Source: Verrucomicrobiales bacterium (lineage in GTDB: Bacteria > Verrucomicrobiota > Verrucomicrobiia > Limisphaerales > UBA11358). From it: 64,000 nucleotides of DNA. The translations under genes were made by a program, and so were the position numbers. The stretch is from positions 50,077-114,076 of the forward strand of contig JAQTQB010000010.1 of the NCBI GenBank assembly GCA_028712475.1, written 5' to 3'. Shown one piece after another: positions 39,578-58,898 of this stretch; the stretch's first letter is position 1; each line of letters starts with the position of its first letter. The notes under the pieces are model-generated. The model did not search any database. It saw nothing but the letters and a program-made list of their open reading frames with translations, and was not told where the DNA came from.

Positions 39578-40738
39578 CTACTTGAGCAGGAATCGCGCGC
39601 TCAACGCCGCATGATCCGAAGCCCAGAGCGGCGGCTCCGCAAGGCCAGTGGCCTGGTCAATCACTTCCGCCTGCACCGGCACGATGCCTTTGCCGCGGTA
39701 GAAAGCAAAGTCAATACGCCGGTCGAAATCCATGCCTGGATCAGCCAGGAATTCGTCGTGGCCCCAGGTCAGCCCGTCCGCCGGCGTGGTTGGATTCAGC
39801 GTGGCCCAAGCGTCGCCGAAACCGGCGGCGGGAATGAAGTCGTAGGCATACGATCCATCGCGATGCAGCGGGTCGGCATTGAAATCACCGATCAAAATCA
39901 CCGGCAGTTTCGTATTCGCCGGACCCGCGAGCAACTCCTGCACTTGCGCCGCCTGAATGTCCGGCCAGATTTCTATTTCGGGATGGGCGCAGATGCAGCG
40001 GAAATTCCGCCCACGGATGAACACGTCCACCGAACACCAGCCTCGTTCCACTGACAAGCCGAGAGCAGGAATGGGAATCACATTCACGAAGTTTCCGCTT
40101 TGTGGATGCGACACTCGCAACTGGCCGGGCGGTAGATCGGTGCGGACCAGAATCGCCTCGCGGTCGGTCAAACGCACGTCGTCAAACATGCCCGTTTCCA
40201 TGTTCAACATCGGCAATTCGATGTCTATTTCGCTGCCGGTGGAAACCACTTTGTAGTGCGCGCCGCGCGCCTGCAAGTCCTGCACGAGCATCTGCAGATA
40301 GTCATACACAACGTCGGTGGCGGCATTGGTGCCGCCGAGCAAAAGATCGCCGGGCGACTGCACCCGGATCAGCGAAGCCTCCTCCACCGCAACGATGTCG
40401 GGCATCTTGGCGGCGATTTGATTCGCCACGGTTTGCAGGCGCACCGGCGGCGCCGACGCGACGATTTCATAATAAACCCCGGTCACGGCCCCCACCAGTT
40501 CTTCGACGTAATTGGTATCCGCCGGATTAATCCCCATGACGCGGCGGATGTCGCCACCGACATAGAGGTTGACCGTCATAACATCCACATCCCGCTTGCC
40601 ACCCACGCCGGCGCGCTCCGCCCAAGCGGGTGCGGCAAACGTCAGCACGGTGGCAATTAGCACCAGAAAAATTGCGAATTTTTCACAGCGCAAGCCGGAC
40701 ATTTTTGTTTTCGTCTCTATTATATCTATCTTTTTCAT
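39578..40738 (-). CDS. Secreted endonuclease/exonuclease/phosphatase (EEP) family hydrolase
   Basis: Start at the MKKIDII Met (or MSGLRCEKF at 40702) gives a signal-anchor FAIFLVLIATVLTFAAPAWA. EEP motifs are VMTVNLY, VAVEE, LIGDFNA and the C-terminal SDHAAL. Confidence 0.8.
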   Translation of the reverse strand: MKKIDIIETKTKMSGLRCEKFAIFLVLIATVLTFAAPAWAERAGVGGKRDVDVMTVNLYVGGDIRRVMGINPADTNYVEELVGAVTGVYYEIVASAPPVRLQTVANQIAAKMPDIVAVEEASLIRVQSPGDLLLGGTNAATDVVYDYLQMLVQDLQARGAHYKVVSTGSEIDIELPMLNMETGMFDDVRLTDREAILVRTDLPPGQLRVSHPQSGNFVNVIPIPALGLSVERGWCSVDVFIRGRNFRCICAHPEIEIWPDIQAAQVQELLAGPANTKLPVILIGDFNADPLHRDGSYAYDFIPAAGFGDAWATLNPTTPADGLTWGHDEFLADPGMDFDRRIDFAFYRGKGIVPVQAEVIDQATGLAEPPLWASDHAALSARFLLK

Positions 40739-40814: not shown

Positions 40815-43800
40815 TCAAATCTCCCCGGTTTGCAAAACGGCTGTCTTCCCGGCCGCGTCAGCCGGAATGCATTCACCGGCATCGCTGAAAGGACATAATC
40901 CGTCTTTTGCCATGTCATTCGCAGCAAACGGTTGTTCATTGCGCTGCACATTCAGATCAAAATGCGCCGGAGGTTTCCTGGCCTTGAACCGTTCCTTGAC
41001 TTCAAAAGCAAAGTTGTCCAGCGCGGCGGAGTTGACGGCATCACCGTTGAAACCTAGCGTGAGGCAAAGGACGCCCTCGTGTTCGGCAACGTGGTGCCAC
41101 TGGGCCTCGGCAATCTTGGTGGGCATGCATTCGAGCGGGCCGACGCTAAGGACGGCGTCAATGTGGCCGTGGCGATATTCGTGCAGCGGCGTGCCGACGG
41201 TAAGCACGGCTTCACCCCAGAGTGCGGAGTGAACATAAGGTTCCGCCGCCGCAAAAGCCTCGGTCGTGGCCGGCAACGGCGACCAGCCCAGATGCGGGGC
41301 CATCGCGGCCAGGGCCGCCCCCTCAATGCGGCGCTGCACCCGATGACTAAACGCGTCCGACAACCGGTTGCGCCCCTCCGTCTGGCGCTGGACCTGCCCG
41401 CAATAATTGATCCATTCAGTTTTCGGCGCGAGATGGACCCGCAAACCGCGCGCCTCCAGTTTCTCGATCACCGAGTCGTTGGCGAACTCGACGCCGCGCA
41501 CGTAAATCTCACCCGTCAATTCCACGCACGGCAAATCCCCCGGCCCGCGCAGCCGGGCAAATTCCCGGGCGGCGCGTTCGAGCAGTGCGCGGAGGCCAAA
41601 CAGCCTGCCGCTGGCCACCTGCCACAGGGCCGGGCCGAGGGACAGGTTGCCGCGCGCCGCCGCCCCGACTTGCGCCAGCAATTCGCCGTGGGCGCGTTGA
41701 TAGAGTTTTTCCGTCTCGCCCGGAATCCGCTCCACCGGCCGGACATCGAACTTCGCCTGCAACAACAAATCGCACGCCGCCAGCGCGGCGAACACCAGCA
41801 TCTCGGTCCCCGGCGGCAGGTCGTCAAAATAACCCGTGTCCTTCGGCGAACAGATGCGCACCCGGTCGCGCCAGCCCAGCCGGTCGAGCACAATGTTGTT
41901 CAGCAGATTGTAAACGCCGAACCGGCAGGGCCCGTCGCTGCAGGGCATGAGCAGCACAAATTTCTCCTCCGCCGGCGCGCGTTCCAGGTGCTGAATCAGC
42001 GTGCCGAGCGTCAGGGGCATGGGCAGGCATTCCTTGCCCGACGTATGCCGCCGGCCCAGGCGCAGCGAGTCGGCGTCCGGGGCGGACAGGCTTTCGGCCT
42101 TGAATCCCAAGCCGCGAAAGACCGCCGTGACCGACTCGGAGGCGGGACCGATGTAGGGCACGAGCAATGTCTCGGATTTCCCGTTGCGTTGTTGTATATC
42201 CGAGAGCCGCAGGCCGCTGAACTGGACGCTTTGAAAATCATTCAGCGCGGCATCGTCCGGCTTGGCCCGCCGGTCTTCCTCAACGCAATGCAGGAACGCC
42301 TCCACGCGCGTCCGCGTTCCGGCATCGCCGGAATGCCCGTCGGTTTCGATCACAACAAAAGGTTTGCCGCCCATGGCATACGCGGCGAAATGCAGGTTGA
42401 AACTGTCCGGCCCGCAGGAATAGTTGCTGCAATAAAGCGCATAAACGCCCGGCATCCGGCGCACCTGATGCGCCGCCCGCAGGATCGTCTGGCCGTAGCC
42501 CCAAAACATGTCGTTGAACAACGGTGTCTCCGCCGCCAGCGGAAAGCAGTCCACCGGAATGCCAATGGCGCCCTGCTCGCGCAGAATCGCCGGCACGTTC
42601 GAGTTCAGCACCTTGTTGTAAATGGTGTAGTTGCGGCCGAGCACGACGACCGGCACAAGTTTTTGCGCGCGGCAAAATTCCAGCGCACGCCGGCCGCTCT
42701 CCTGACAGCCCGCGTCAAATTCCCGTTGCGCCGCCTGGCCAGCCGACCAGACGGCGCGGCCTTGTGGTTCCTCCAAACCCAGCTCCTTGGCCAATTGCGC
42801 ACAGCTTTTTAAAAACTCCTTTGACTCCAAGTTCCCCGGACCAAAATTTATGATCGGCGTGAGCATCCGGGGGACTCTGCCCTTTTCAGAAGCCAGTCCC
42901 TGCTCGACCACCTTCGGGGCGCCCTGGATAATCGGGCAGCCCACCGCGCAGCGCTGGCCCGTTTCACCCGGCAGGCTGCGGATCATTGGCACGAACATCC
43001 AGTCTGCACCGGACGCCGCAAGTCGCTGCGCGACGCCATGGAAAAGCTGCATCGGCGCACAGAATGGCGCGTTCGCCGACTGGATGCCGCGCTTGAGAAC
43101 ATCAGGCCCCGCACCGGTAACAATTTCCAGGTCAAATCCGGCCGCGTGAAAATAGGCGGCGAAAAACGGGAACAGTCCCTTGGCCATGAATTCATCGCTC
43201 ATGGCTATGCGCGGACCACCACGCGGAGCAACGAGCGGAGCCAGCAGTTTTTGAAGCCGTTCATCCCGTTCGCGGAACGGGTCGGGCGCGAGGTCTGGCA
43301 GTTTCTTTTTGCGGGTGCCCTTGTCATACAACGAACAGCCGCCACCCCATGTAAAATTGGAATGTTGATCGGCCACGAGCGTGCGCAACCTCTCGATGCG
43401 GCAATGGTTGCCCGCACCGCCACACCCCCGGTTCGAGCCGCAGACGAACGTGTCCTTCTGCTCCACTTTGGCGTCGAGGAATCGTGCGAGGTCCAGCGGC
43501 GCGAGCCGGGCGGCATCCAACTCGCGGGCGGCCAGCATGGCAATGCCCATCGCTCCGACCGTGCCCGGATTTGGGGGCACGATCACCTCGCTGCCGGTCT
43601 GCCGGGCCACCGCCGCCGCGAGCGCGGCGGCGGAAAATGGCATGCCCTGACAGAAAATAACCTTGCCGACGGAGCGGTTGCCCTTCACGCGGTTCAGGTA
43701 ATTCTTGATAATGGAATCGTAGAGGCCGGAAATGATGGCCGGCTGCCCGACGCCCGCGCCGACCGCCTCGTCAATCACCTCGGCCATGAACACAGAGCAA

Positions 43801-45326
43801 TGCTGGCCCAGCGAGACGCCCGAGGGCGCGGCCTGCGCCGCAAGGCCAAGCTGACAGACATCTTCAATGCCAGAAAACTTGCGGCCTTGTTCCTCGATGA
43901 ACGAACCCGTGCCGGCACTGCAAGCCTCGTTCATCGCGCAATCAATGATGCGCCCTTCGGCGAGCCGCGTGTATTTCGCGTCCTGACCGCCAATTTCAAA
44001 AATCGTGTCCACGCGCGGGTCATAATGCAGCGCGCCGGTGGCGTGGGCGACGATCTCGTTCACGATGAACACGGCGTCCTTGCCATAGCAGGATGTGAGC
44101 AGCGAACCGGAGACTTCGCGTCCGCTGCCGGTGGTGCCAAAGGCGACCACAGGATATTTCATTGCCGGATGCTCGGTGAACCGGCGTAGCAAATCTTGCG
44201 CGGCTCCAACGGGATCGCCAAGCGTCTGGCGATACGCCTCCCAGACCGTTTCCTGCGTTGTCAAATCAAGGGCCACAGCCTTTGATCCAGTCGAACCGAT
44301 GTCGAAGCCGATGACCAGACGGCGGAACACACCGTTCACCCTGGCCCATGGCTGTTTCGACATCCGGCGGACGCGGTGGAGTGAATCTGCCAGCGCGGGC
44401 AGGCGTTCCAGCTTCAATTCACGGGGCGGCAGCAGAAGTTTGTCCGGCACAGGCAGCGCGGTTGGATTCTCCGCCGCGATGATCGCGCAGCCGAGCGCTT
44501 CCATGCAAAGTAATTGCTCTTCATCCGCCGCCACCAAAGTCATTCCCTGCTTCGCGAGCAGTTCGCCAAAAATCCGGCGCACACGTGGCGACCGGCTCAC
44601 TCCGCCGGTCAGCAACACGCGCGACGGACTGACGCCGGGTTTGATGAGGACGGAGACATTTTCACAAACCGCGTCGAACAAACCGGCCAGGATCCGCTCG
44701 CGACTCTCGCCCTTGTTGGCAAGGTGCGTCATGTCCGTCTTGAGAATCACCGGACAGCGGCCAGACAGCGGCGCGGGATTGGGCACATCGGCGCACAAGA
44801 CGCTCGCCTCCTCGACCGTGAGCGAGAAACGCTCGACGAGTTGCCGGAGGAAATTGCCAGTGCCCTGCGAGCAGCGGCCGTTTTCGCGGAAAACGGTCAG
44901 CCCGTTGGCGCGCAGTTCCAGCACGGAAAAACCGTGGCTGCCGATGTTGACAATGGTGGCCGGTTTGTCGCCAAACAAAAACCGGTAGCCGCGCAGCAGC
45001 GCCTGCTTGGCCGGAACGCGCGGCAGATTGATTTGCGTGGAAAACCGGCCGGTCACGGCGGCGGCCTTGATTTCAGACCAGTTCCAGCGGGGCAACGATT
45101 CGAGCAGAGTCTGGCCGGGCTTTTTCCCGTGCCCGATGATTTCACGATGCCCCACCCGCAGGTTTCCTGCTCCGCGGATAAGCTCCACCACTTTGATGGT
45201 CTCCGTGCCGACATCGAGACCGAGGTAGCAAACGCCAGGGTCGGAAAGGTCAGGCGTGACAAAACCATCTGTCATGCAATTCAAACCTCCATAGGATGAC
45301 TTGATCATAACCTCCCCCTTTCCCAT
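40815..45326 (-). CDS. Giant fusion protein: two BcrA/BadF/HgdC-type activase ATPase modules plus 2-hydroxyacyl-CoA-dehydratase-like (DUF2229/HGD-D-like) modules. PlsA/PlsR- or Ger-like candidate.
   Basis: 1503 aa. ATPase module 1 has LGLDVGTETIKV and GRCSQGTGNFL. Module 2 has IGFDIGSTGSKAV, EIGGQDAK and EACSAGTGSFIE. The C-terminal two-thirds carry YCSNYSCGPDSF, MPCSDGPCRFGVY and GPLECMPTKI motifs. An alternative start is at 45308. Confidence 0.85.
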   Translation of the reverse strand: MGKGEVMIKSSYGGLNCMTDGFVTPDLSDPGVCYLGLDVGTETIKVVELIRGAGNLRVGHREIIGHGKKPGQTLLESLPRWNWSEIKAAAVTGRFSTQINLPRVPAKQALLRGYRFLFGDKPATIVNIGSHGFSVLELRANGLTVFRENGRCSQGTGNFLRQLVERFSLTVEEASVLCADVPNPAPLSGRCPVILKTDMTHLANKGESRERILAGLFDAVCENVSVLIKPGVSPSRVLLTGGVSRSPRVRRIFGELLAKQGMTLVAADEEQLLCMEALGCAIIAAENPTALPVPDKLLLPPRELKLERLPALADSLHRVRRMSKQPWARVNGVFRRLVIGFDIGSTGSKAVALDLTTQETVWEAYRQTLGDPVGAAQDLLRRFTEHPAMKYPVVAFGTTGSGREVSGSLLTSCYGKDAVFIVNEIVAHATGALHYDPRVDTIFEIGGQDAKYTRLAEGRIIDCAMNEACSAGTGSFIEEQGRKFSGIEDVCQLGLAAQAAPSGVSLGQHCSVFMAEVIDEAVGAGVGQPAIISGLYDSIIKNYLNRVKGNRSVGKVIFCQGMPFSAAALAAAVARQTGSEVIVPPNPGTVGAMGIAMLAARELDAARLAPLDLARFLDAKVEQKDTFVCGSNRGCGGAGNHCRIERLRTLVADQHSNFTWGGGCSLYDKGTRKKKLPDLAPDPFRERDERLQKLLAPLVAPRGGPRIAMSDEFMAKGLFPFFAAYFHAAGFDLEIVTGAGPDVLKRGIQSANAPFCAPMQLFHGVAQRLAASGADWMFVPMIRSLPGETGQRCAVGCPIIQGAPKVVEQGLASEKGRVPRMLTPIINFGPGNLESKEFLKSCAQLAKELGLEEPQGRAVWSAGQAAQREFDAGCQESGRRALEFCRAQKLVPVVVLGRNYTIYNKVLNSNVPAILREQGAIGIPVDCFPLAAETPLFNDMFWGYGQTILRAAHQVRRMPGVYALYCSNYSCGPDSFNLHFAAYAMGGKPFVVIETDGHSGDAGTRTRVEAFLHCVEEDRRAKPDDAALNDFQSVQFSGLRLSDIQQRNGKSETLLVPYIGPASESVTAVFRGLGFKAESLSAPDADSLRLGRRHTSGKECLPMPLTLGTLIQHLERAPAEEKFVLLMPCSDGPCRFGVYNLLNNIVLDRLGWRDRVRICSPKDTGYFDDLPPGTEMLVFAALAACDLLLQAKFDVRPVERIPGETEKLYQRAHGELLAQVGAAARGNLSLGPALWQVASGRLFGLRALLERAAREFARLRGPGDLPCVELTGEIYVRGVEFANDSVIEKLEARGLRVHLAPKTEWINYCGQVQRQTEGRNRLSDAFSHRVQRRIEGAALAAMAPHLGWSPLPATTEAFAAAEPYVHSALWGEAVLTVGTPLHEYRHGHIDAVLSVGPLECMPTKIAEAQWHHVAEHEGVLCLTLGFNGDAVNSAALDNFAFEVKERFKARKPPAHFDLNVQRNEQPFAANDMAKDGLCPFSDAGECIPADAAGKTAVLQTGEI

Positions 45327-45428: not shown

Positions 45429-46790
45429 CTACGCCGCCAGCAGATGTTCCTCACGCTTTACGTTCCGGCCAAAGTGCGGCGACGTTTTCAACATCCGTTT
45501 GAAGTTGGCGCGGCGCGCTTGTGTTTCCCCGGCGGAGTAAAGTTGTTTTACCAGGCCGAGAAATCCATTTTGCAATTCGGCGGCACTCATGTTTTTAGGC
45601 TGAAAATTGATGTCAAACAAAGTGCAGATCTCCCACGCACGGTCACGCAGGATGCGACCCTCGTTCTTCAGCCGCGCGTAAAGCGGCGTGCCGGGGAACG
45701 CGGTCAGGAACGTCACCTGCACTTCGTAAAGCGCGGAGTCGCGCACAAAATCCAGCACGTCGCCGAACACGTCGCGCGTGTCGCCGTCGAGTCCGAGGAT
45801 GAAACAGCCGTTCACCGTCACGCCATAGGACTGAATTTTTTCAATCGCCGCCTTGTAATGGTCCTGCTGGTGAAGTTTCCAATTCGATTTCATTTCCACG
45901 CCGCAGAGGCTCGTGCGGAGCGGGCTTTCGAGGCCGATGAGAACCTGCTGGCAGCCGGAATCGCGCATCAAAGCAAGCAGTTCGTCATCTTGCGCCACAT
46001 TCACGTCGGCCTCGGTGAACCAGCGGATGTTTTCCTTCGCCATTTCGCGCAGAAGTTTTTTGTAATGCTCGCGGTGGACGAAGCTGTTGTCGTCCGCAAA
46101 CTCGATGAACGGCTTGGCCCAAATCTTTTTGATCTCACGGATCTCGGCGATGACTTTTTCCACCGGCTTCACCTTGTAGCGCGGCGTGAGCAGGATGGAA
46201 CTAGCGCAAAACTCGCATTTGTGCGGACAACCGCGGCTGGTCTGCACGGTGAGGCGGTTATATTTTTCCGGGTCGAGCAGATCGAAGCGCGGCATCGGCG
46301 CATCGGCCAGATTGAACTCGCGGTTGGTGACGTAAAACGGCTTCAACTCGCCGCGCTCGAAATCCGCGAGCAGTTCCGGCCAGAGCAGTTCGCCCTCGCC
46401 AATGACGACGCTGGTGCAATGCTCCTTGGCCTGTTCCCGCAACGACGAAACCGTGATGCCGCCCATGACGACGGGGATTCCTTTGGCACGGTAAAAATCC
46501 GCGACGTCGCACGCCTCGTAAAATTGCGCGGTGAAGGTGCTGATGGCGACGAGGTCGAAATTCACCGGCATCTCCGGCAAGGTTTTCAGATCGGCAATCT
46601 CGTGATACTCGACGTGGAATTGCTCCGGCGTCAGCCCGGCAAGCGTGAGCAGGCCAAGGCTTGGCAGCGAGGCGATGATTTTGTTGCGATCCACAAAACC
46701 GGGCAGCGTGAGGCCGAGCCTGGTGAGCTCCGCATTGTGAGCACGGACGCCGCTCATGGCGATGAATCCGATGTGTTTTTTCGTGTTCAT
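45429..46790 (-). CDS. B12-binding-domain radical SAM protein
   Basis: Start MNTKKHIGFIAM (ATGA overlap with the upstream gene). N-terminal B12-like Rossmann region (FDLVAISTFTAQ..GIPVVMGG), then the radical SAM triad SRGCPHKCEFCAS. Confidence 0.85.
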   Translation of the reverse strand: MNTKKHIGFIAMSGVRAHNAELTRLGLTLPGFVDRNKIIASLPSLGLLTLAGLTPEQFHVEYHEIADLKTLPEMPVNFDLVAISTFTAQFYEACDVADFYRAKGIPVVMGGITVSSLREQAKEHCTSVVIGEGELLWPELLADFERGELKPFYVTNREFNLADAPMPRFDLLDPEKYNRLTVQTSRGCPHKCEFCASSILLTPRYKVKPVEKVIAEIREIKKIWAKPFIEFADDNSFVHREHYKKLLREMAKENIRWFTEADVNVAQDDELLALMRDSGCQQVLIGLESPLRTSLCGVEMKSNWKLHQQDHYKAAIEKIQSYGVTVNGCFILGLDGDTRDVFGDVLDFVRDSALYEVQVTFLTAFPGTPLYARLKNEGRILRDRAWEICTLFDINFQPKNMSAAELQNGFLGLVKQLYSAGETQARRANFKRMLKTSPHFGRNVKREEHLLAA

Positions 46791-47182
46791 AATTTTATTG
46801 CCTCCATCAGGGTCAAAACTCCGCCGATGATCAGGCTGATGACCGGCACGGCAAAAATCAGGTGCGCCTTTGGAAAATGCGCCATGGCCACGCAGCAAAC
46901 CGGCATGGCAATCGCGCCGGTGATGAAGGCCAGCGACGCAAAATGAACCAGCGGGCCGGCCAGCAAAAAAATTTGCACGGTCAGGCAGAACAGCAGGTTC
47001 ACCGCGCCGAGACCGAAGAACGAAATGTGGCCGAGGCGATACATCCGGCGTTTGAAACTCGCGTAGCCGCCCAGCCAGCTTTCACCGTGAAAAAACATCC
47101 CCAGCGCCATGCCGGAAACGAAGCCAAGCAGAATCCAGAGCCAGGCGAGCAACAAATTGATTTGGACGATTTCCGTTTTCAT
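46787..47182 (-). CDS. Hypothetical 4-TM membrane protein, first gene of the operon
   Basis: 131 aa with four hydrophobic helices. Translationally coupled (ATGA) to the radical SAM gene. No recognised family. Confidence 0.55.
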   Translation of the reverse strand: MKTEIVQINLLLAWLWILLGFVSGMALGMFFHGESWLGGYASFKRRMYRLGHISFFGLGAVNLLFCLTVQIFLLAGPLVHFASLAFITGAIAMPVCCVAMAHFPKAHLIFAVPVISLIIGGVLTLMEAIKL

Positions 47183-47259: not shown

Positions 47260-48132
47260 ATGAATGTTCACCACTTGGAGTTGTTCTATTACGTCGCGCG
47301 GCACGGCGGCATCATGGAAGCGGTGCGGAACATCCCCTACGGCATCCAGCAGCCGGCGGTCAGCTCGCAGATTTCACAACTCGAGGAATTTCTCGGCGTC
47401 ACGCTGTTCCAGCGGCGTCCGTTCGCGCTGACGGCGAAAGGCGAAAAACTGTTCAAGTTCATCCAGCCGTTCTTCGCAAACCTCGACAAAGTGGCGACGG
47501 AACTTCAGGGCGGACAGGCGCGGCATATCCGCATCGGCGCCTCCACCATCGTGCTGCGCGACCATCTGCCGCAACTGTTGCGGACGGTGAGCGGAAAATT
47601 TCCAGGATTGAAAATGTCATTGCGCGAAGGCTTTCCGGCCCAGTTGGAAACCTGGTTGCAAGCGGATGAAATTGACCTGGCCATCACGCTGACCGAGAAG
47701 AATTACCCGCCGGGAATCTGTTCGCTCGCCTTGCTGAAACTGCCGCTCGTCCTGCTCGTCGGAAAAAACAGCGGCCTGAAAGCGGCGGAAGAATTATGGC
47801 AGCGCGACAAGATCAACGAACCGCTCATCTGCTTCCCGCCGGGCCAGCCGCTCGGCAAAATTTTCCAGCAAAAGCTCGGCGAACTCGGCGTGGACTGGTT
47901 TCCCAGCATTGAGGCGAGTTCGGTGGACTTGATTGAAACCTATGTGGCGAACGGCCTGGGCATCGGCGTGTCGGTGGCCATCCCGAAAAAACCCCTGCCG
48001 CCCAACGTGCGCCCGCTGGCGCTGGACGGGTTTCCACCCGTGACCATCGGCGCGTTATGGCGCGGGCGCAAAACGCCGTTGCTGCAGACTTTTCTTGATG
48101 AATTGCAGGCGCGCGCCAGCCGGCTCGCGTAA
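47260..48132 (+). CDS. LysR-family transcriptional regulator
   Basis: N-terminal wHTH (HLELFYYVARHGGIMEAVRNIPYGIQQPAVSSQISQLE) followed by a LysR substrate-binding domain. Divergent from the 4-TM/radical SAM operon. Confidence 0.9.
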   Translation: MNVHHLELFYYVARHGGIMEAVRNIPYGIQQPAVSSQISQLEEFLGVTLFQRRPFALTAKGEKLFKFIQPFFANLDKVATELQGGQARHIRIGASTIVLRDHLPQLLRTVSGKFPGLKMSLREGFPAQLETWLQADEIDLAITLTEKNYPPGICSLALLKLPLVLLVGKNSGLKAAEELWQRDKINEPLICFPPGQPLGKIFQQKLGELGVDWFPSIEASSVDLIETYVANGLGIGVSVAIPKKPLPPNVRPLALDGFPPVTIGALWRGRKTPLLQTFLDELQARASRLA

Positions 48133-48922: not shown

Positions 48923-50329
48923 TTATTCCGACGGGGCGGGCAGTCCGAGATACCCATAGAACGTGTTTAATACGGGCGCGGGCATGAAGATATCAAAGAG
49001 CAGTTTCACGTTGAGGACAATTATAATCGCGGCGATGGTCCAGCCGAGGATCTTGATCCAGACCGGATTCACAAACTCGCCCATCTTGGCTTTTTCGCCG
49101 GTAAAGCGCATCAGTGGCCAGATGGCAAAGCCTAGCTGCATGGACAATACCACCTGGCTGGCGATCAGCAGATCCGTGGTTTTGCTTTCGCCAAACCAGC
49201 CAATCACAACAACAGCCGGAATGACCGCAATAAGCCGCGTGATCAGCCGGCGCAGCCACGGGCGCAGCCGGATGTTGATGAACCCTTCCATTACGATCTG
49301 CCCGGCCAGCGTGCCGGTCAGCGTGGCGTTTTGTCCCGACGCCAGCAGCGCCACGGCAAACAGGATGCTCGCCACCCCGACACCCAGCAGCGGGCTTAAC
49401 AACTGGTAGGCATCCTGGATGGACGCCACGTCCTGGTGACCGGACCAGTGAAATGCCGACGCGGCCAGAATGAGAATGGCACCGTTGATGAACAGCGCGA
49501 ACATCAACGCCACCGTCGAATCAATCGTGGCGAACTTGATGGCCTCGCGTTTTCCGACGGGGTTCTGCTCGTATTTGCGTGTCTGGACAATCGATGAGTG
49601 CAGGTAAAGATTGTGCGGCATGACCGTCGCGCCGATGATGCCGATGCTGACGTAGAGCATGCTCTGGTTCGTGATGATCTGCGAACTGGGAATGAAGCCC
49701 AGCAGGATGCCGGCGATTCCGGGTTTGGAAAAAAACAGCTCGGCGGCAAAACAACCACCGATGGTCACAATCAGCGTTATCACCAAAGCTTCGATGTAAC
49801 GAAAGCCTTTGTTCTGCAAATAAAGCACAGCCAAAACGTCCAGCACGGTGATGACACAACCCCACATCAGCGGAATCCCAAAGAGCAGTTGCAGCGCGAT
49901 GGCCGAGCCGACGACTTCGGCCAGATCGCACGCCGCGATGGCGATCTCACAAAGAAACCAGAGAAACCAGACGGTCGGCGTGGAGTAATGATCGCGGCAC
50001 GCCTGCGCCAGATCGCGGCCGGTAGCGATGCCCAGCTTGATGCACAAGTGCTGAAGCAGAATCGCCATCAGGTTGGAAATCATGATGACGGCCAGCAACG
50101 TGTAGCCAAATTGCGCGCCGCCCGCGAGGTCGGTGGCCCAGTTGCCCGGATCCATGTAACCGACGGCCACAAGAAAACCGGGGCCGGAAAACGCCAGCAA
50201 CTTCCGCCAGAAGGAAGCGTTCGCCGGCACGAGCACGCTGCGGTGGACTTCCACCAGGGAGACTTGTCCCGCCGGCTTGCGCCAGGCGAATTTTGGGTTT
50301 GGTTCAACAGGAGGTTCGGATTGAGCCAT
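48923..50329 (-). CDS. mntH: Nramp-family divalent metal (Mn2+/Fe2+):H+ symporter
   Basis: 468 aa. [14 protein letters not shown] signature and 11-12 TM helices. Confidence 0.92.
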
Positions 50330-50365
50330 AAAAATTTATGTTGTTCGCCGGTAAATTTACTCTTG

Positions 50366-51238
50366 TCAAAATCTCACCGTGATTCCGGCGAAGGGGTTAA
50401 AATCATCCGCCGCGTGCGTGACGCCAAAATTGCAGCCGCCATCGAGCTGAACATTGTCCGTGACCAAATACGTCAGGCCGGCGTCAACGGTTCCCACCCA
50501 GCCGGAATGGGGATCGGTGCTGATGTCGCTGAAAAGTTCCACAAAGCCGGCCAGCCGTCCGATGAGGTCATGGCTGACGGTGAAGGAGTTTATAAAATCT
50601 CCGTGATAGTTGCTGACATTATCTTCGCGCAGAAAACCGACCGCCGTCTCCAATCCCAAATTAAAGTTCCGTGGCAATTTGACGGCGAGCGGAAAAATGA
50701 TGCCGCCTTCAACCGCTTGGGTGCCCAAGTTGTCAGTGCTGGTGGGAAATGTGACGAACGGCAACAGCGCAAACGCCGCCCGGCCGCCGTCGTCGCCCCA
50801 GAGATTGATTTTCAACCTTGTGGTCAGGTCACCGATCCCCGATTGCGTCGTGCTCCCGCCCGCGACGTGGGTGTTGGCATGCATGTAACCGCCGAACGCA
50901 AGCTGGAAATCCACGTTGTTCAGCAGGCCGGCTTTGAGGTTGAAGGGGGCGACGATCCAGGCCCGGGTGGTTGTGCCGTCCGTTTGATTGTAAGTAAAAT
51001 TCGCAAAATCCATCTCCATCTGGAAATGGCCGGCATCCACCGTGTAAGGCGATTCAGTCTTGTCTGGACGGTCCGGACTCAATTCGCGCAGCAGCTCCTG
51101 CGGCACGGGGTTGAAAAGCGTGTAACCGCTTTTGTCCGGTGCCGCGCCCCAGGCCGGCTGCGCCGCGCCCGTCTCCGCCGCCACAGCGGACAGGACGACG
51201 GACGACAACCACCATGATCGGCCCCGGCTCATCAACAT
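50366..51238 (-). CDS. Outer-membrane beta-barrel protein (MetA-pathway/transporter-type barrel), co-oriented with mntH
   Basis: Signal peptide (SWWLSSVVLSAVAAETGAA). Alternating beta-strand pattern ending in ..FAGITVRF (C-terminal Phe). The start is 51238 or 51232. Confidence 0.7.
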   Translation of the reverse strand: MLMSRGRSWWLSSVVLSAVAAETGAAQPAWGAAPDKSGYTLFNPVPQELLRELSPDRPDKTESPYTVDAGHFQMEMDFANFTYNQTDGTTTRAWIVAPFNLKAGLLNNVDFQLAFGGYMHANTHVAGGSTTQSGIGDLTTRLKINLWGDDGGRAAFALLPFVTFPTSTDNLGTQAVEGGIIFPLAVKLPRNFNLGLETAVGFLREDNVSNYHGDFINSFTVSHDLIGRLAGFVELFSDISTDPHSGWVGTVDAGLTYLVTDNVQLDGGCNFGVTHAADDFNPFAGITVRF

Positions 51239-51254
51239 GTAGCCTATGTTACAT
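51237..51254. promoter_or_regulatory. Palindromic box 1: ATGTAGC-N4-GTTACAT (candidate MntR operator)
   Basis: 14 of 18 positions are self-complementary. Lies in the divergent barrel-mntH / mntR region and overlaps the barrel start codon. Confidence 0.4.
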
Positions 51255-51278
51255 TTCAAAGCCCGCCCGTCAACCAAA

Positions 51279-51295
51279 ATGTAGCTTCGGTTACA
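51279..51295. promoter_or_regulatory. Palindromic box 2: ATGTAGC-N4-GTTACA (candidate MntR operator)
   Basis: Same half-sites and spacing as box 1, 42 bp away. Confidence 0.4.
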
Positions 51296-51344
51296 AATTT
51301 AAACCTAGACTAAAAAAACGCGTTGGGATTCACTGGTTGAAATT

Positions 51345-51806
51345 ATGGCGCGTTCACTCCGCAAACCCAAGGCCGCCGGGCGTCCCCCGGAGGTGCGGCC
51401 CTCGGCGCAGCAGGCCGAGAACCTGCGCCGGTCCCGGCGCGATCGCGCGGTGGAAACGGCGCAGGATTACGTCGAGGCCATTGCCGACCTTTCCGCTTCC
51501 CTCGGCGAAGCGCGGGTGGTGGATCTGGCGCGGCGGCTGGGCGTGACCCATGTGACCGTCAACCGCACCCTGACGCGCCTGCAACAGGCCGGTTATGTGA
51601 ACACCCAGCCTTATCGCGCAATCTTTCTTACAGATTCCGGACGCAAGCTGGCCGATGAATGTAAACGGCGGCATCAGACGGTGGCGGCGTTTTTGCGCAA
51701 GCTCGGCGTTTCGGAAAAAACCGCCGAGCTGGACGCAGAAGGCATTGAGCATCACGTCAGCCCGGAAACCCTGGCGACTTTTGAAAAACTGCTGGCCAGA
51801 CGCTGA
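51345..51806 (+). CDS. mntR: DtxR/MntR-family manganese-responsive transcriptional regulator
   Basis: wHTH region ARVVDLARRLGVTHVTVNRTLTRLQQAGYV, followed by a metal-binding/dimerisation region (..RRHQTVAAFL..EGIEHHVSPETL..). Confidence 0.85.
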   Translation: MARSLRKPKAAGRPPEVRPSAQQAENLRRSRRDRAVETAQDYVEAIADLSASLGEARVVDLARRLGVTHVTVNRTLTRLQQAGYVNTQPYRAIFLTDSGRKLADECKRRHQTVAAFLRKLGVSEKTAELDAEGIEHHVSPETLATFEKLLARR

Positions 51807-52105
51807 TGCGACCAAACGACATCCAACAGATTGGCAGCGAACTCGCGATCAAGTGGACGGACGGCGGGGAAAGTTTTATTCCTCTGGAACATTTGCGCCG
51901 CGCCTGCCCGTGCGCCGGATGCAAAGGCGAAACGGACATCATGGGCAACCTGTATAAAAACCCGGAACAGAAACTGACGGCGGCGGCGTTTCAACTGGTC
52001 CGGATCATCAGCGTGGGCGGCTATGCGATCCAACCGGTCTGGGCGGACGGACATAACACGGGCATTTACTCCTTCGATTATCTGCAACGTCTGGCGGCAA
52101 AATAA
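51806..52105 (+). CDS. DUF971 (gamma-butyrobetaine-hydroxylase N-terminal-like) small protein
   Basis: 99 aa. Contains ACPCAGC.. and IQPVWADGHNTGIYSFDYL, typical of DUF971. 1-nt overlap with the mntR stop. Confidence 0.7.
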   Translation: MRPNDIQQIGSELAIKWTDGGESFIPLEHLRRACPCAGCKGETDIMGNLYKNPEQKLTAAAFQLVRIISVGGYAIQPVWADGHNTGIYSFDYLQRLAAK

Positions 52106-52132
52106 AACGGCGCGTTCGTGAGAACGCGCCGT
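52098..52132 (-). terminator. Rho-independent terminator downstream of pilQ (possibly bidirectional)
   Basis: 11-bp stem ACGGCGCGTTC/GAACGCGCCGT (52107-52132), followed on the minus-strand transcript by TTTTATTTTG. Confidence 0.6.
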
Positions 52133-52169
52133 GGTGATAGAGGTAAAATTCTTACGCAATTAATAGCGG

Positions 52170-53852
52170 TTATCGCGTGGGTATGAGAGCCGTTTTGGGA
52201 TTGCTCCAGTCGGAAGGCTCGGTGTTATTCCATGCTGATTCCGGGTCCATTATAACCGGGCGCTTGGCGTCAGGCTGCGTTGCTAGGAAATTGTTCGGAT
52301 GGAGTTGGAAATCCTGATCCTTCACAATGGTCGGCGTGATGAAAATCACGAGATCCCTTTTGTCCGTGCTTTTCGTTTCGCTGCGGAAGGCATGACCCAG
52401 ATAAGGGATATCACCCAACACCGGAACTTTGGTGGTTTCTGACACCGGATTGTCCAAGACCAATCCGCCCATTACCAATGTGTTGGCGTTGGGAATAATG
52501 ACCTGGGTAGTTATGGTCCGAACATCGAACGTCGGCGCTGACAAAACTTGAATGCCACTCACGCTTGACCCACCACCAACGCTCTGCTTCTGATCAGCAC
52601 CTTGATTGGAAACTTCCGGAACCACTTTGAGCCAAATGTTGTCGTTGGCAGAAATGCGGGGCGTAACCGTCAAAGTGGTGCCCACATTGGAATAGGTGAC
52701 GGAAGAACCACCAGAGTTGTTGGCCGAGCCGGCAGTCACATTGAACACAGGAACTTGGTGGGTGACCGAGATGGTTGCAGCTTCATTATCCAAGGTGACC
52801 AATCGCGGGGTGGACACAATTTGAGCGTCGGCAGATGAATTGATAAACGATATCACGGCGCTTAAACCATCGGCATTGAGAAAGCCGACCGAGCCAAAAC
52901 CGCCGCCAGTGTTAGCTACTACACCAGGCGCTCCCAGCGCTTGACCACCAGGGAAATTATTGAATCCAGGAGTGGTTGTTGTTTGTGGATCAATCAAACT
53001 ATTTCCAAACGTAACATTTTGGCCCTGAAGTGTGCCGCGCCAGTCAATGCCTTTCCGAGTGGTGGGATTGTCGCTGATTTCAACCAGACGGGTTTCAATC
53101 AAAACCTGGCGGGTGGGTTTGTCGAGCTGGTTGACCAGTATTTCCACGGAAGCCTGTTCCGGCTCGGTGGCCACGACAATCAACTGGCTGGTGCGTGTGT
53201 CAGGCACCACTTTGCTGCGCTTGTCAGTCAAGGCGCTCGACGTAGCTCCCATCATATTGGAGACACTTGAGTATTTAAGCTGAACCACGCGGGTGACCAG
53301 CGGCGGCGGAGCCGCTGGATCTTTGATGGTGATACGGACAATCTTGGTCTTGCTGTCTGCAACCATCTGAAGTCCGTAGTTGTCCAGCAATGCCGCGAGA
53401 GCGTGTGCGGCGGTGATGTTTTCCCAGCGGATGGACAAAGTGGGTTCTGGTTTGATCTGCCCGTTTGCGTCAGGCTGGCCGTAGCCGATCTTTGGATCCA
53501 ACAAGTAATTGATGTTGGCCTGCCGCGCGAGATTTTCGATGGCGGTGGTGATTGGAACCTCCTGAAATTGGATCAGGGGTATGTTCACAGCTTCGGGAGC
53601 CGGAGCATTGGTCGCGGCGGAGGCTTCTGCGGCAACGGCCTCGACTGGTGCATTGCTGGCAACGACAACGTCGGGCTGGTTGGTGGCAGCGACGGCTAAC
53701 GCCGGCACATTCGTCACGGCGTCGGCAGCCACCTCGTTTGTGACAGCCGCAACGGCGGACTGATCCGGCATGACGACGTTGGTTTGACAAAAAGCCATGT
53801 GCTGCAACAAGAATGTTCCAAGCAACGTGGCGAGCAGTGTTTTTAGTTTCAT
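52170..53852 (-). CDS. pilQ: Type IV pilus secretin PilQ (GspD superfamily)
   Basis: Start at MKLKTLLATLLGTFLL gives a signal peptide. Secretin C-domain motifs are TPRLVTLDNEAATI, VGTTLTVTPRI and VPVLGDIPYLGHAFR. Confidence 0.85.
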   Translation of the reverse strand: MKLKTLLATLLGTFLLQHMAFCQTNVVMPDQSAVAAVTNEVAADAVTNVPALAVAATNQPDVVVASNAPVEAVAAEASAATNAPAPEAVNIPLIQFQEVPITTAIENLARQANINYLLDPKIGYGQPDANGQIKPEPTLSIRWENITAAHALAALLDNYGLQMVADSKTKIVRITIKDPAAPPPLVTRVVQLKYSSVSNMMGATSSALTDKRSKVVPDTRTSQLIVVATEPEQASVEILVNQLDKPTRQVLIETRLVEISDNPTTRKGIDWRGTLQGQNVTFGNSLIDPQTTTTPGFNNFPGGQALGAPGVVANTGGGFGSVGFLNADGLSAVISFINSSADAQIVSTPRLVTLDNEAATISVTHQVPVFNVTAGSANNSGGSSVTYSNVGTTLTVTPRISANDNIWLKVVPEVSNQGADQKQSVGGGSSVSGIQVLSAPTFDVRTITTQVIIPNANTLVMGGLVLDNPVSETTKVPVLGDIPYLGHAFRSETKSTDKRDLVIFITPTIVKDQDFQLHPNNFLATQPDAKRPVIMDPESAWNNTEPSDWSNPKTALIPTR

Positions 53853-53995
53853 ACCTTCTTTATGGGTTGGACAAGTTACGGTTCGGTTAGTGGTTGACAG
53901 GTTAAGTGATCGGTTAATTAAACAAACTCCATCCAGCTTGGATGCCACCCAACGGGTTTGCATCAAGCTCGGCTGATTATTGACGTAGTGACGTT

Positions 53996-54445
53996 TCATT
54001 GGTTTTCCTCATAGCGTAATTCATGCCGTTGACCATTTACTTCAATCACCGCTGAATTAGAGTTGATTTCGAGACAATGAACGTGGATTCGTCCTTGAGT
54101 TGTGGACACTTCTGCATAATCCCCCACGGCAAAAGTGTGTTTATTGATGATTGCCAGCCGATTTGGAGGCATCCCTGAAACACCCTGCATGACAAGCGAG
54201 TCCAGATTTAGATCAGTCGTCCGGGCACTGGGAAGAACCGCTGCCTGATACGGGCGGGATGAAGATGGGTAAAACGGATCGCGACCATCCTTGGGGCCGG
54301 CGGGCAATATAAAAACTGAATGCACGCTGGCGGTCGCGTCAGTGACCGGCGGGACAGGCCCTGCCATGACCGGCACCCCTGCCATGAACAGCACGGATAA
54401 CAGTGCCGTCTTCATACTTTTCAAAAATGTTTTGCGATGGCTCAT
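53996..54445 (-). CDS. PilP-like pilus assembly lipoprotein/periplasmic protein
   Basis: 149 aa. Signal peptide, RDPFYP motif and a C-terminal beta-rich domain. Lies between pilO and pilQ. Confidence 0.5.
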   Translation of the reverse strand: MSHRKTFLKSMKTALLSVLFMAGVPVMAGPVPPVTDATASVHSVFILPAGPKDGRDPFYPSSSRPYQAAVLPSARTTDLNLDSLVMQGVSGMPPNRLAIINKHTFAVGDYAEVSTTQGRIHVHCLEINSNSAVIEVNGQRHELRYEENQ

Positions 54446-54450
54446 CGGTT

Positions 54451-55017
54451 TTATGAAGCGTTGAGTTTTATGAGTGCGATGATTTCCATCCTGAACGAAA
54501 GTTTTTCACCTTCATTTCCAGATGGTTCGATGGTGAGGCCGGCCACACGGACGTGGGGGAAATTATTTTCCAAATCCGCCACAAATTTTCCGATGTCATG
54601 GTAGTAACCCCTGCCAGCGACAATGAAACGCATCTGCTTATATGGAAAAGACGGAATCAAATCCACTTCACCCTCCACTGGATGGCCAATTTCTGGAATC
54701 TCGACTTTGTATTGCTGCTTGAAAAGGCGCAGGGTGTTGTAAGCCCAGGAATAGAGATCGCCCGAAGCCGTGTCCTCCTCGGCCCGCGAAAGTGCAGCCG
54801 TCACGGTGATCAGCTCGTTGGTGGTCAAACCGGCATTTTTAATGGTTTTTTCAATGCCCTGAAGTTGAACTTCGGCAGCTTTCCGGCTTTGTCCAACTCT
54901 GGCAAGAACGGAACTTTGAGAGCGAATGAGACCAAAATAAATTAGCATCAGTATCGCCACCGTTATAGCCACGACGATGATGAACGGATTACGTTTTTCT
55001 TTAGGCAGCCATTTCAT
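54451..55017 (-). CDS. pilO: PilO-like type IV pilus assembly protein
   Basis: 188 aa. N-terminal TM helix, a coiled coil, then a C-terminal alpha/beta domain. ATGA overlap with pilN. Confidence 0.6.
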   Translation of the reverse strand: MKWLPKEKRNPFIIVVAITVAILMLIYFGLIRSQSSVLARVGQSRKAAEVQLQGIEKTIKNAGLTTNELITVTAALSRAEEDTASGDLYSWAYNTLRLFKQQYKVEIPEIGHPVEGEVDLIPSFPYKQMRFIVAGRGYYHDIGKFVADLENNFPHVRVAGLTIEPSGNEGEKLSFRMEIIALIKLNAS

Positions 55018-55685
55018 TGGGTTTTTTCAGGATAATAACATTCCAAGTTGAACATCACATACGGCCGGACATCCGGACCGCTTTGCGGCGACGACAAGCT
55101 GATCAGTTTGACTCCATTGGTCTGGTTTAACATTGTTTTGAAATAAGCCTGACTGGCGATTTTTTCCTTGAACTTGTCAACTGCATCCCCGGGGTTCGCA
55201 CTAAAATCCTTCGCGTCAAGCGCCAGAACTATATTTTGGGTGACGGTTGCTGGATGACCCAATATAACGTGGTTGTTGTTCGTCTGATTTGCCACGCCTG
55301 GCGTGTTCACAAAAGACTGGCTTAATCGTATCCTCATCAGCTGGACGCCGTCCATGGTCGCCAGTTGCAAAGCGTTTAAATAATTACCGTGCAGGAAGCG
55401 GGCGTTGCTCAACTGCTGTAATGACTCCAGTTTTCCCTTGATGGCGGTAACTTTTCTCTGGCTGACCAGCACCGTCTGATATTCGTTAGTGCGGGTCATG
55501 ATCTCCGCCTGCACCCGGGACAGATCCTTTTTAGAAATAAGAACCTCAAGCTGAAGAGAGCTGCTCCAAACCAAGGCGAACACCACTAAAAACGCGCCGA
55601 CAAACATCGCCCGCTTTACGGGGTCGCGACGACGCAATTCTTCTGCGATTTTAGCTTCCGCCAGCAAATTGATACGTATGGGCAT
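55014..55685 (-). CDS. pilN: PilN (fimbrial assembly) protein
   Basis: N-terminal IRINLLAE motif, one TM helix and a coiled coil. Confidence 0.75.
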   Translation of the reverse strand: MPIRINLLAEAKIAEELRRRDPVKRAMFVGAFLVVFALVWSSSLQLEVLISKKDLSRVQAEIMTRTNEYQTVLVSQRKVTAIKGKLESLQQLSNARFLHGNYLNALQLATMDGVQLMRIRLSQSFVNTPGVANQTNNNHVILGHPATVTQNIVLALDAKDFSANPGDAVDKFKEKIASQAYFKTMLNQTNGVKLISLSSPQSGPDVRPYVMFNLECYYPEKTQ

Positions 55686-55700
55686 AACCAGATATAAAAA

Positions 55701-56780
55701 TTATAAGGCCACCAGTGCAGCGCCGACCGCCACGGCCAACTGCGGTCCTATTTGCTCAATCTCCACCGCCTGTTGCCCCGGCAACGACAACTGCAGAAAC
55801 CTGCTCGGATTCCATGTCTTGCATTCGACAATCAATTCGGCGTGCAATATCTCCAAGATCATTTCCGACCGTGCCGAGCCTCCGCTCACATAAACCTGGG
55901 TCACCGGGCGATCCTGTTGGTGCTCGAAAAAATCCAGCGACGCCCGCAACTCCCGCCCCAACGGCGTCACTTGCATTTCCAACGATGACTGGACTTCCGG
56001 AGCCATGCCGACCTTGATGCCTTCGGCCTCCGCATAGCTGATGCTCATCGCCTCGGCCAGCCCCCTCGTCACATTGTCTCCGCCGATGTTCACCACGCGC
56101 GTCAATGCCAGCTCGCCGTGATCCAGCACGCAGATCACTGTGTGCTTGAAACCGATGTCCACCAACGCCACGACTTCATTGGCAAAAACTTCCGGCAGCG
56201 CCATTTCAAAAGCATTTATGGGGCCGACGAGCCCTGGAACCATGTAGTCAGCCACCAAGCCGGCCGATTTGATGGCCGCCTGATAATCACTCACCAACTG
56301 CTGCTTCGCGCCCGTCACCAGAACTTTGGATTTGCCAACGCCTGATGTTTTTGAAATTTCGGCCAGATTGCCGGGCGTCACGGGCTTCGGCGGAAAAATG
56401 TGGCAATCGAAAACGTGCCCCGGCAGATCCTGTTGCAAATAGCCCTTGGTATTATTTTTCAACACCATCCGCATTTCATCCATTGGAATGTTCGGCAAGT
56501 CCACCTGCCGGACAACCGCGTCATCAAGCCCGACGGACAGCGTGATATATTTGGCATCCGTTTCCAAAGCCTCCACCACGGTTTTCAAATGTTCAGCCAG
56601 TAATTCCGATGAGATTTTTTTTTCGAAAATCGGCGCGTCCAGCAACGCATACCGGCACAAAGACCAAACCTCGCCCCGCTGTTCAAGGAACACCGCTTTC
56701 GTGGTGCGGGCCCCCAAATCAACCGAGACTATCTGCGTCCGCTTCCTTTTTTTAGAGCCGTTTAAGAATGGCAATGCCAT
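55701..56780 (-). CDS. pilM: Type IV pilus assembly ATPase-like protein PilM
   Basis: Start MALPFLNGSKKRK... Actin-like fold (VSVDLGARTTKAV, VDIGFKHTV, VSGGSAR). Confidence 0.85.
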   Translation of the reverse strand: MALPFLNGSKKRKRTQIVSVDLGARTTKAVFLEQRGEVWSLCRYALLDAPIFEKKISSELLAEHLKTVVEALETDAKYITLSVGLDDAVVRQVDLPNIPMDEMRMVLKNNTKGYLQQDLPGHVFDCHIFPPKPVTPGNLAEISKTSGVGKSKVLVTGAKQQLVSDYQAAIKSAGLVADYMVPGLVGPINAFEMALPEVFANEVVALVDIGFKHTVICVLDHGELALTRVVNIGGDNVTRGLAEAMSISYAEAEGIKVGMAPEVQSSLEMQVTPLGRELRASLDFFEHQQDRPVTQVYVSGGSARSEMILEILHAELIVECKTWNPSRFLQLSLPGQQAVEIEQIGPQLAVAVGAALVAL

Positions 56781-58863: not shown

Positions 58864-58898
58864 GTGTCTTTCGGTTGTGGCTGGCCGTCGCGGGTCAA

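Follow-up and report, generated by a model that had tools for sequence, protein, structure and literature searches.

Can one bacterial polypeptide hold both an ATP-driven activator and the radical dehydratase that it serves, and what would such a protein make? We wanted to look at this question in a stretch of 64,000 nucleotides (the window) from contig JAQTQB010000010.1 of a Verrucomicrobiales bacterium, where a minus-strand open reading frame (ORF) at window positions 40815-45326 runs uninterrupted through 1503 codons and encodes 1503 residues. The earlier note on this DNA, made from the letters alone, had described a radical enzyme with two activase modules and a duplicated dehydratase-like part. 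The ORF carrying both parts in one chain shows no interruption, and its translation contains each of the nine quoted peptide motifs, about where the earlier note had placed them. That observation is largely correct, and the mechanistic reading attached to it, a fused pseudo-dimeric activator with a duplicated client, is correct in outline. The large gene is probably a single-chain member of the PlsA/Ger family (anaerobic plasmalogen synthase, PlsA, and glycerol ester reductase, Ger), which belongs to the ATP-dependent radical enzyme superfamily of benzoyl-CoA reductases (BCR), 2-hydroxyacyl-CoA dehydratases (HAD) and double-cubane proteins (DCCP), and would make ether lipids without oxygen.

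Domain architecture and family of the large gene

Pfam recognised two BcrAD_BadFG ATPase modules (PF01869; overall E 1.6e-33, with E 2.2e-14 for module 1 and 6.5e-19 for module 2 when these were scanned separately) and DUF2229 (PF09989) at residues 707-926 (E 1e-34). A significant PF06050 (HGD-D) match was sought in the large protein and not obtained; when the protein was scanned in pieces, a sub-threshold match appeared at residues 964-1012 (E 0.0028, 17.7 bits vs a cut-off of 28.4). The NCBIfam model TIGR00241 ('acyl-CoA dehydratase activase') scored 158 bits (cut-off 125.4), and the equivalog models run on the protein (BcrA/D, BzdQ) all stayed far below their own cut-offs. Two PF01869 domains followed by PF09989 and short PF06050/PF09989 remnants form the architecture of Ger in T. 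maritima and D. alkenivorans, and the 'BBD' part of this layout is conserved in all alkyl-ether producers (PMC13159169). Judged as in that paper, the large protein contains the BBD architecture, two PF01869 domains and PF09989 in one chain. The plasmalogens of C. perfringens depend on a split pair, PlsA and PlsR; in E. faecalis, L. cremoris and B. longum subsp. suis, one gene of 4.2-4.9 kb with the layout Act1-Act2-Red1-Red2 takes the place of the pair (PMC12838417). A fused PlsR-equivalent second reductase/dehydratase module, Red2, is present in the large protein and fits the Red1/Red2 scheme of PMC12838417. We assign the protein to PlsA/Ger because its domain architecture matches both the Ger and the single-gene PlsA layouts. 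The published homology criterion for such proteins, with either Tmari_0479 or Q8XL47/Q8XL48 as the reference, is E <= 1e-50 and coverage >= 30%. Reports of Ger/PlsA homologs cover many phyla, the PVC group included (PMC13159169); the class Brocadiia, in which Ger homologs have been reported, contains a full-length relative of the large protein (E 7e-92). The parts of the protein are as follows.

40815-45326, minus strand: whole ORF, Act1-Act2-four-Cys linker-Red1-Red2, 1503 residues
44457-45227, minus strand: Act1, divergent BcrAD_BadFG/archerase ATPase module, residues ~34-290; Cys152 and Cys191, degenerate phosphate-binding site (DVGTETIK; NIGSHGFS), adenosine motif TGGVS kept
44316-44456, minus strand: connector from Act1 to Act2, residues ~291-337, modelled at pLDDT ~85-93
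43512-44315, minus strand: Act2, canonical archerase ATPase module, residues ~338-605; DIGSTGSK, EIGGQDAK, Cys469 and Cys510
43317-43466, minus strand: four-Cys linker, residues ~621-670; C629-x5-C635-x6-C642-x21-C664, putative extra metal site (Fe-S or Zn)
42237-43286, minus strand: Red1, residues ~681-1030; DUF2229 (residues 707-926) and an HGD-D-like C-terminal remnant (residues 964-1012), invariant Cys756, Cys797 and Cys971
40962-42206, minus strand: Red2, PlsR-equivalent second reductase/dehydratase half, residues ~1041-1455, homologous to Red1; invariant Cys1100, Cys1134 and Cys1400
40818-40961, minus strand: C-terminal tail, residues ~1456-1503, non-conserved and modelled with low confidence; includes Cys1478 and Cys1486

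The start codon is ambiguous between M1 (45326), M7 (45308) and M18 (45275), and purine-rich stretches lie upstream of M7 and M18. The GenBank entry uses M18; translated from there, the sequence matches at 100% identity a database protein named 'acyl-CoA dehydratase activase-related protein [Verrucomicrobiales bacterium]' from a 128.8-kb contig of a metagenome-assembled genome (MAG). Homology to relatives starts at about residue 34, and residues 1-33 are not conserved.

An activase and its client in one polypeptide had been called unusual, a view that the database searches refute. A word-index search returned 7,120 proteins at E <= 1e-10, and the best 120 of these all carry PF01869 and PF09989 and measure 1,430-1,650 residues, with one exception (P0118, 1,274 residues). 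An exhaustive search with the catalytic part gave 2,622 clusters at 50% identity; of the best 150 clusters, 79 stand for fused proteins of full length (1,340-1,560 residues), the rest being mostly fragments or catalytic-only forms of ~800 residues. Cluster look-ups for ten diverse representatives yielded generic names only, from MAGs. Since the fused form dominates the best-scoring relatives, fusion of activator and client is the standard form of the PlsA/Ger family. Fusions had been noted before (PMC7317905), and the Act1-Act2-Red1-Red2 layout is published for PlsA/Ger (PMC13159169, PMC12838417).

The ATPase pair

Both ATPase modules align over their full length (phmmer) to HadI (4EHT), HgdC (1HUX), DCCP-R (7YYL) and MbdP/Q (9GAI), and hhalign shows the two modules to be homologous (100%, E 1e-59). 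The quoted motifs contain C152 and C191 in module 1 and C469 and C510 in module 2. Counted along the phmmer alignments, both pairs fall on C127/C166 of HgdC and C115/C152 of DCCP-R. In DCCP-R, C115 and C152 coordinate the bridging [4Fe-4S] cluster, with C152 placed at the N-terminus of a 'cluster helix' (PMC9351452). To count conservation across the family we used 80 diverse relatives of full length, 28-58% identical in the catalytic part; 79-80 of them keep the four Cys, far beyond chance. A cluster-ligating Cys pair in each activase module, as the earlier note had claimed, is therefore borne out: all four Cys align with the ligands of HgdC, HadI and DCCP-R. In the AlphaFold2 model of residues 18-660, which covers both modules (pLDDT 85.9, pTM 0.81), Cys191 and Cys510 each stand just before a helix, an arrangement resembling DCCP-R's cluster helix. 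The best PDB matches of this model are MbdP/Q, HadI, HgdC and DCCP-R, with target-normalised TM-scores of 0.74-0.89. Because both HgdC-type modules keep two cluster-ligand Cys, the covalently fused pseudo-dimer could hold one bridging [4Fe-4S] cluster, and the proposal that the two halves form such a pseudo-dimer gains support from the alignments.

The nucleotide sites of the two modules are not alike. In DCCP-R the three phosphates are bound by S9-N11 together with the GQD loop (PMC9351452), and the corresponding P1 and P2 triplets read as follows.

DCCP-R: P1 STN, P2 GQD
Module 2: P1 STG (in DIGSTGSK), P2 GQD (in EIGGQDAK)
Module 1: P1 TET (in DVGTETIK), P2 SHG (in NIGSHGFS)

Intact nucleotide-binding motifs, on which the earlier note had made its reading depend, are thus present in module 2, while the phosphate-binding motifs of module 1 are degenerate, with TET/SHG instead of STN/GQD. 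The same holds across the family. The phosphate motifs of module 2 are canonical in 79-80 of the 80 relatives, and a [DE]xGG[QE]DxK motif occurs in module 2 of 79 and in module 1 of 20. Module 1 is the more divergent of the two (mean column entropy 2.44 vs 1.82 bits), yet it keeps both of its Cys. As for the adenosine GG motif, module 1 has the canonical form (TGGVS) and module 2 a conserved Q-G variant. Because the phosphate motifs are conserved in module 2 and not in module 1, the pseudo-dimer appears functionally asymmetric. From these motifs we infer that Act2 would be the working ATPase and Act1 mainly a structural half-site giving two ligands to the cluster.

The four-Cys linker and the two catalytic halves

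Fourteen Cys are conserved family-wide in a 4+4+3+3 pattern: 152, 191, 469 and 510 in Act1/Act2; 629, 635, 642 and 664 in the linker; 756, 797 and 971 in Red1; and 1100, 1134 and 1400 in Red2. Downstream of the modules, the quoted motifs contain C629/C635/C642, C966/C971, C1129/C1134, C1400 and C1478/C1486, and the two lists overlap in part. The Cys cluster FVCGSNRGCGGAGNHC that had been pointed out behind the modules is present, and it is better described as a conserved four-Cys motif together with C664. Its usual form in the family is C-x2-C-x3-C-x17-21-C, stretched in the large protein by a clade-specific insertion to C-x5-C-x6-C-x21-C. Exactly four Cys occur in the linker segment of 72 of the 80 relatives, and AlphaFold2 models predict three short beta-strands for it. 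We detected no counterpart of this linker in HgdC/HgdAB-type systems and found no description of it in the literature examined. Possibly it forms an additional Fe-S or Zn site. Not all of the highlighted Cys fared as well. C966 and C1129 are not conserved family-wide (6% and 1%), and the Cys-containing C-terminal tail, put forward as a feature, does not stand, with Cys1478/1486 in only 2-4% of relatives, the tail absent from most of them and pLDDT at ~30. Judged by their conservation, Cys 966, 1129, 1478 and 1486 appear irrelevant.

The dehydratase-like part is indeed duplicated. With a diverse alignment, Red1 (residues 680-1030) and Red2 (residues 1040-1455) matched each other in hhalign at 97.1% (E 5.7e-11, 305 columns); the match is significant only with such an alignment, and with close homologs only the probability was 8%. 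Three Cys are in register between the halves (756/1100, 797/1134 and 971/1400), and all six are invariant in the 80 relatives. The AlphaFold2 model of residues 610-1503 (pLDDT 81.3, pTM 0.79) places each of the six at a strand-to-helix junction. The top 14 Foldseek matches of this catalytic model in the PDB are only DCCP, BzdNO, HadBC and MbdON, with probability 1.0 and target-normalised TM-scores of 0.37-0.52. We take the duplication as confirmed because the two halves are homologous with their Cys in register and match the folds of the superfamily. Three Cys per half correspond to the three-Cys [4Fe-4S] sites of 2-hydroxyacyl-CoA dehydratases; double-cubane proteins carry a seven-Cys motif, which the Red1/Red2 pattern does not fit (PMC7317905).

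These results bear on whether the protein could be an activase only, its C-terminal 850 residues serving as a docking or regulatory scaffold for a client encoded elsewhere. The annotation as activase or activase-related protein would suit such a role, as would Pfam's naming residues 707-926 only as a domain of unknown function. The modelled Red1 and Red2, however, have the HAD/BCR/DCCP catalytic fold, and each half holds three invariant Cys at homologous strand-helix junctions in 80 diverse sequences, the signature of cluster-binding catalytic subunits. Moreover, single-gene PlsA alone is sufficient for plasmalogen synthesis in E. coli (PMC12838417). An activase-only protein is for these reasons highly improbable.

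Chemistry, gene neighbourhood and known systems

If the large protein is a PlsA/Ger enzyme, its working can be outlined in four steps, the first three by homology. First, Act1 and Act2 would form an intramolecular pseudo-dimer holding one [4Fe-4S] cluster through Cys152, Cys191, Cys469 and Cys510, and this bridging cluster would be reduced by an external ferredoxin or flavodoxin. Second, binding and hydrolysis of MgATP, probably only in Act2, would alter the helix-cluster-helix geometry and drive the electron uphill, possibly via the site in the conserved four-Cys linker. Third, the electron would arrive at [4Fe-4S] clusters in the two catalytic halves, each with three Cys ligands (756, 797, 971 in Red1; 1100, 1134, 1400 in Red2), the fourth iron being free for substrate or a small ligand as in HadB/HadC. 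Fourth, as in characterised relatives, the sn-1 acyl ester of a membrane glycerolipid would be reduced and dehydrated under anoxic conditions, the product being either a plasmalogen with its vinyl ether, as made by PlsA, or a saturated alkyl ether, as made by Ger. In the chemistry that has been proposed, the sn-1 ester is reduced twice by one electron, then protonated and dehydrated (PMC8788747). The word 'self-contained', which the earlier note had used of this enzyme, says too much, because by the BCR/HAD mechanism an external low-potential electron donor would still be required. Nor does the sequence decide between the two ethers: small Pfam hits, by which Ger has been told apart from PlsA in print, are not a robust guide, and only B-B-D-H was detected here, so a saturated product cannot be inferred.

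Several points weigh against the PlsA/Ger assignment. It was reached through architecture, family-level homology and the literature, not through direct comparison with characterised sequences. Against PDB sequences, the profile of Red1 (the half that was searched) gave marginal matches only, with DCCP at E 0.17. Because sequence profiles match so marginally, the link from the catalytic part to the solved HAD/DCCP structures is remote and comes from fold comparison, at modest TM-scores. The convergence of the four ATPase Cys on one cluster is putative. To our knowledge, ether lipids have not been documented for the uncultured source lineage. We found no conserved lipid operon among the gene neighbours in the window, in 82 related loci or in four long contigs taken up below. 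Finally, a different substrate is possible, because few members of the family are characterised and most of them share only 28-45% identity with the clade of the large protein in the catalytic part.

That last point leads to a fused HAD/BCR/DCCP-type reductase/dehydratase of the same class, likewise supplied with electrons by an ATP-driven injector, whose substrate would be an acyl-CoA, an aromatic thioester or a small molecule in place of a membrane glycerolipid ester. Such an enzyme would agree with the generic database names ('acyl-CoA dehydratase activase-related', 'CoA-substrate-specific enzyme activase'), with DCCP, BzdNO and HadBC as best structural matches of the catalytic part and with the lack of an NCBIfam equivalog at cut-off, besides the divergence of the clade and the neighbourhood, which is not a lipid operon. 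Against it, a DUF2229-containing BBD with a fused second half has been tied experimentally to ester-to-ether conversion in six organisms (PMC13159169, PMC12838417), and classical HAD, BCR and DCCP enzymes are multi-subunit and have neither DUF2229 nor the four-Cys linker. Each half has three invariant Cys, not the seven-Cys motif of DCCP (PMC7317905), and CoA-transferase, CoA-ligase or aromatic-degradation genes were not found near the large gene. We regard another substrate as unlikely and keep the PlsA/Ger reading as the probable one. On that reading, the large protein is an ordinary, uncharacterised verrucomicrobial member of a known family, and the basic picture is unchanged.

Eighty related loci (47-82% identity) all come from MAGs. 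They belong mostly to Verrucomicrobiota (subdivision 3, Opitutae, Akkermansiaceae, Limisphaerales), others to Acidobacteriota (Terracidiphilus, Granulicella) and a few to Myxococcota and other groups. Six MAG records ('binchicken' co-assemblies and similar; L009, L012, L016, L020, L040 and L041) are labelled 'uncultured Bifidobacteriaceae/Bifidobacterium'; their genes are 57-77% identical to the large protein, some share the LysR neighbour described below, and the taxonomic labels look wrong. In the window, the following genes lie around the large gene.

39578-40738, minus strand: Endonuclease/Exonuclease/Phosphatase (EEP) family protein with an apparent signal peptide
45429-46790, minus strand: B12-binding/Radical_SAM/DUF4070 protein
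46787-47182, minus strand: hydrophobic ORF of 131 residues with ~4 transmembrane segments
47260-48132, plus strand: divergently oriented LysR-type regulator
48923-58902, minus strand: upstream backbone with Nramp, a Phenol_MetA_deg outer-membrane protein, secretin, small unknown ORFs and PilM, type IV pilus/type II secretion-like

The stop of the small ORF overlaps the start of the radical SAM gene as ATGA, with GGAGG 11 nucleotides upstream, and the two are translationally coupled. This pair is very conserved (>120 clusters at >=84% identity, always coupled), and its two genes are co-directional with the large gene, with short gaps. It adjoins the large gene in only 7 of 82 loci; five times it lies upstream and twice (L008, L060) downstream. 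The pair is also retained, with no adjacent PlsA/Ger-like gene, in four long contigs whose radical SAM genes are 84-90% identical, and one of these contigs keeps the backbone of the window (secretin, Nramp, LysR, small ORF, radical SAM gene, response regulator) minus the large gene and the EEP gene. Since pair and backbone persist elsewhere in this way, the large gene resembles a variable insertion beside a conserved pair. The same Nramp/secretin/PilM backbone flanks the radical SAM pair in related contigs.

A functional partnership of the large gene with this pair is possible and weakly supported. In its strongest form, the large enzyme would be one step of a dedicated pathway shared with its neighbour, the membrane-coupled B12-type radical SAM protein, making tail-modified or membrane-spanning ether lipids. 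The co-directional arrangement with short gaps would fit this, as would the linkage of the trio in 7 of 82 loci in two different orders and the pairing in the literature of Ger with the radical SAM enzymes Mss/Tes for lipids resembling brGDGTs (branched glycerol dialkyl glycerol tetraethers) (PMC13159169). A similarity to 'lipid biosynthesis B12-binding/radical SAM protein' points the same way, although weakly (71 bits vs a cut-off of 360). On the other side, 75 of the 82 PlsA/Ger-like loci have no radical SAM gene, and the four long contigs keep the small ORF and radical SAM gene coupled with no such enzyme beside them. No sequence match links the radical SAM protein to the solved tetraether synthase; among solved proteins AprD4 is its nearest relative, and every NCBIfam match, among them sub-threshold similarities to HpnJ, PhpK and BchE, lies far below cut-off. 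Such a joint pathway is accordingly improbable. As a candidate in its own right, the radical SAM protein was also considered as a Tes/GDGT-MAS-like or Mss-like partner; the lack of a PDB match to GDGT-MAS, these low NCBIfam scores and the lack of adjacency in the four contigs weaken that role.

A broader extension of the PlsA/Ger reading is less likely than not: enzymes of this type would be a mechanistically distinct, asymmetric archerase variant, with Act1 as a degenerate pseudo-subunit that gives two cluster ligands and no more, a further metal centre in the family-specific four-Cys linker as an electron relay from the bridging cluster to Red1/Red2 and, in this clade, possible cooperation with the radical SAM protein in making modified ether lipids. 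If true, an asymmetric archerase with an ATPase in Act2 only implies one ATP per injected electron, not one per subunit.

The LysR-type protein may be the regulator of the region. It stands beside the large gene in 21 of 82 loci, often abutting it (L007, L009, L012, L020, L022 and others), and it also accompanies the small ORF/radical SAM pair where the large gene is absent; its placement recalls the regulator upstream of pls in E. faecalis (PMC9702350). In an 85%-identical relative (L001, 15054-19241), the PlsA/Ger-like gene is followed by genes for FA_hydroxylase, a fused MFS-acyltransferase and an AMP-binding enzyme. This set for lipid remodelling resembles LplT/Aas and gives the PlsA/Ger reading a weak lipid context; it was not found after the large gene in the window. 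In one long contig with a related radical SAM gene, a fused MFS-acyltransferase-AMP-binding gene follows that gene. The EEP gene likely starts at an internal Met (MKK...), 77 nucleotides 3' of the stop of the large gene, and its longest ORF (from 40951), which overlaps the large gene, is probably over-extended. The EEP protein was considered as a lipid phosphodiesterase and set aside, having no solved relative and adjoining the large gene in only 2 of 82 loci. Promoter and terminator scans stayed at chance level.

Plasmalogens, alkyl ethers and brGDGTs, bacterial lipids that are ether-linked or span the membrane, serve as environmental and palaeoclimate markers whose producers are poorly known. 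The locus adds evidence for an anaerobic PlsA/Ger-type route in Verrucomicrobiota of soil, peat and freshwater, with related copies in the Acidobacteriota MAGs named above. The new points are modest: the family-wide 4+4+3+3 Cys pattern, the conserved four-Cys linker and the one-sided conservation of the ATP site. For enzymologists, that pattern, a linker absent from classical dehydratases and reductases and a single strongly constrained ATP site in a pseudo-dimer can all be tested.

The known systems closest to the large protein include PlsA, both the single-gene form (E. faecalis EF1327/Q835P9, L. cremoris, B. longum subsp. suis) and the split PlsA+PlsR of C. perfringens (CPE1194/1195). It shares with PlsA a chain of ~1,400-1,640 residues, the Act1-Act2-Red1-Red2 order, the BCR/HAD family and the conserved cluster Cys, and in many genomes a regulator gene lies directly upstream, TetR-type in E. 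faecalis (PMC9702350) and LysR-type in the loci of the large gene. It differs in coming from Verrucomicrobiota, from an uncultured MAG lineage, with a vinyl ether as putative product, and in the insertion in the four-Cys linker and the strongly diverged Act1 phosphate site of its clade. With Ger ('modified PlsA'; T. maritima Tmari_0479, D. alkenivorans SHJ90043) it has in common a BBD followed by short H/D remnants in a fused single chain, although Pfam detects only B-B-D-H in the large protein.

The archerases HgdC (1HUX), HadI (4EHT), DCCP-R (7YYL) and the BcrA/D-type MbdP/Q (9GAI) resemble its ATPase pair in the ASKHA fold, in two cluster Cys per module at the same positions with the second at a helix N-terminus, and in the CxxGTGxF motif. 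They are homo- or heterodimers of separate subunits of ~260 residues with a nucleotide site in each, whereas the modules of the large protein are covalently joined and keep the phosphate-contacting residues only in module 2. Its catalytic part resembles HadB/HadC (3O3M), BzdN/O (8S02), MbdO/N (9GAI) and DCCP (6ENO) in the paired homologous Rossmann-like halves with Cys ligands at strand-helix junctions, and the HAD-type clusters in having three Cys per half. It differs from them in its remote sequence similarity, modest TM-scores and extra helical insertions, and in having the DUF2229 signature and the four-Cys linker without the seven-Cys motif of DCCP; its characterised PlsA/Ger relatives, moreover, act on a membrane lipid and not on a CoA thioester.

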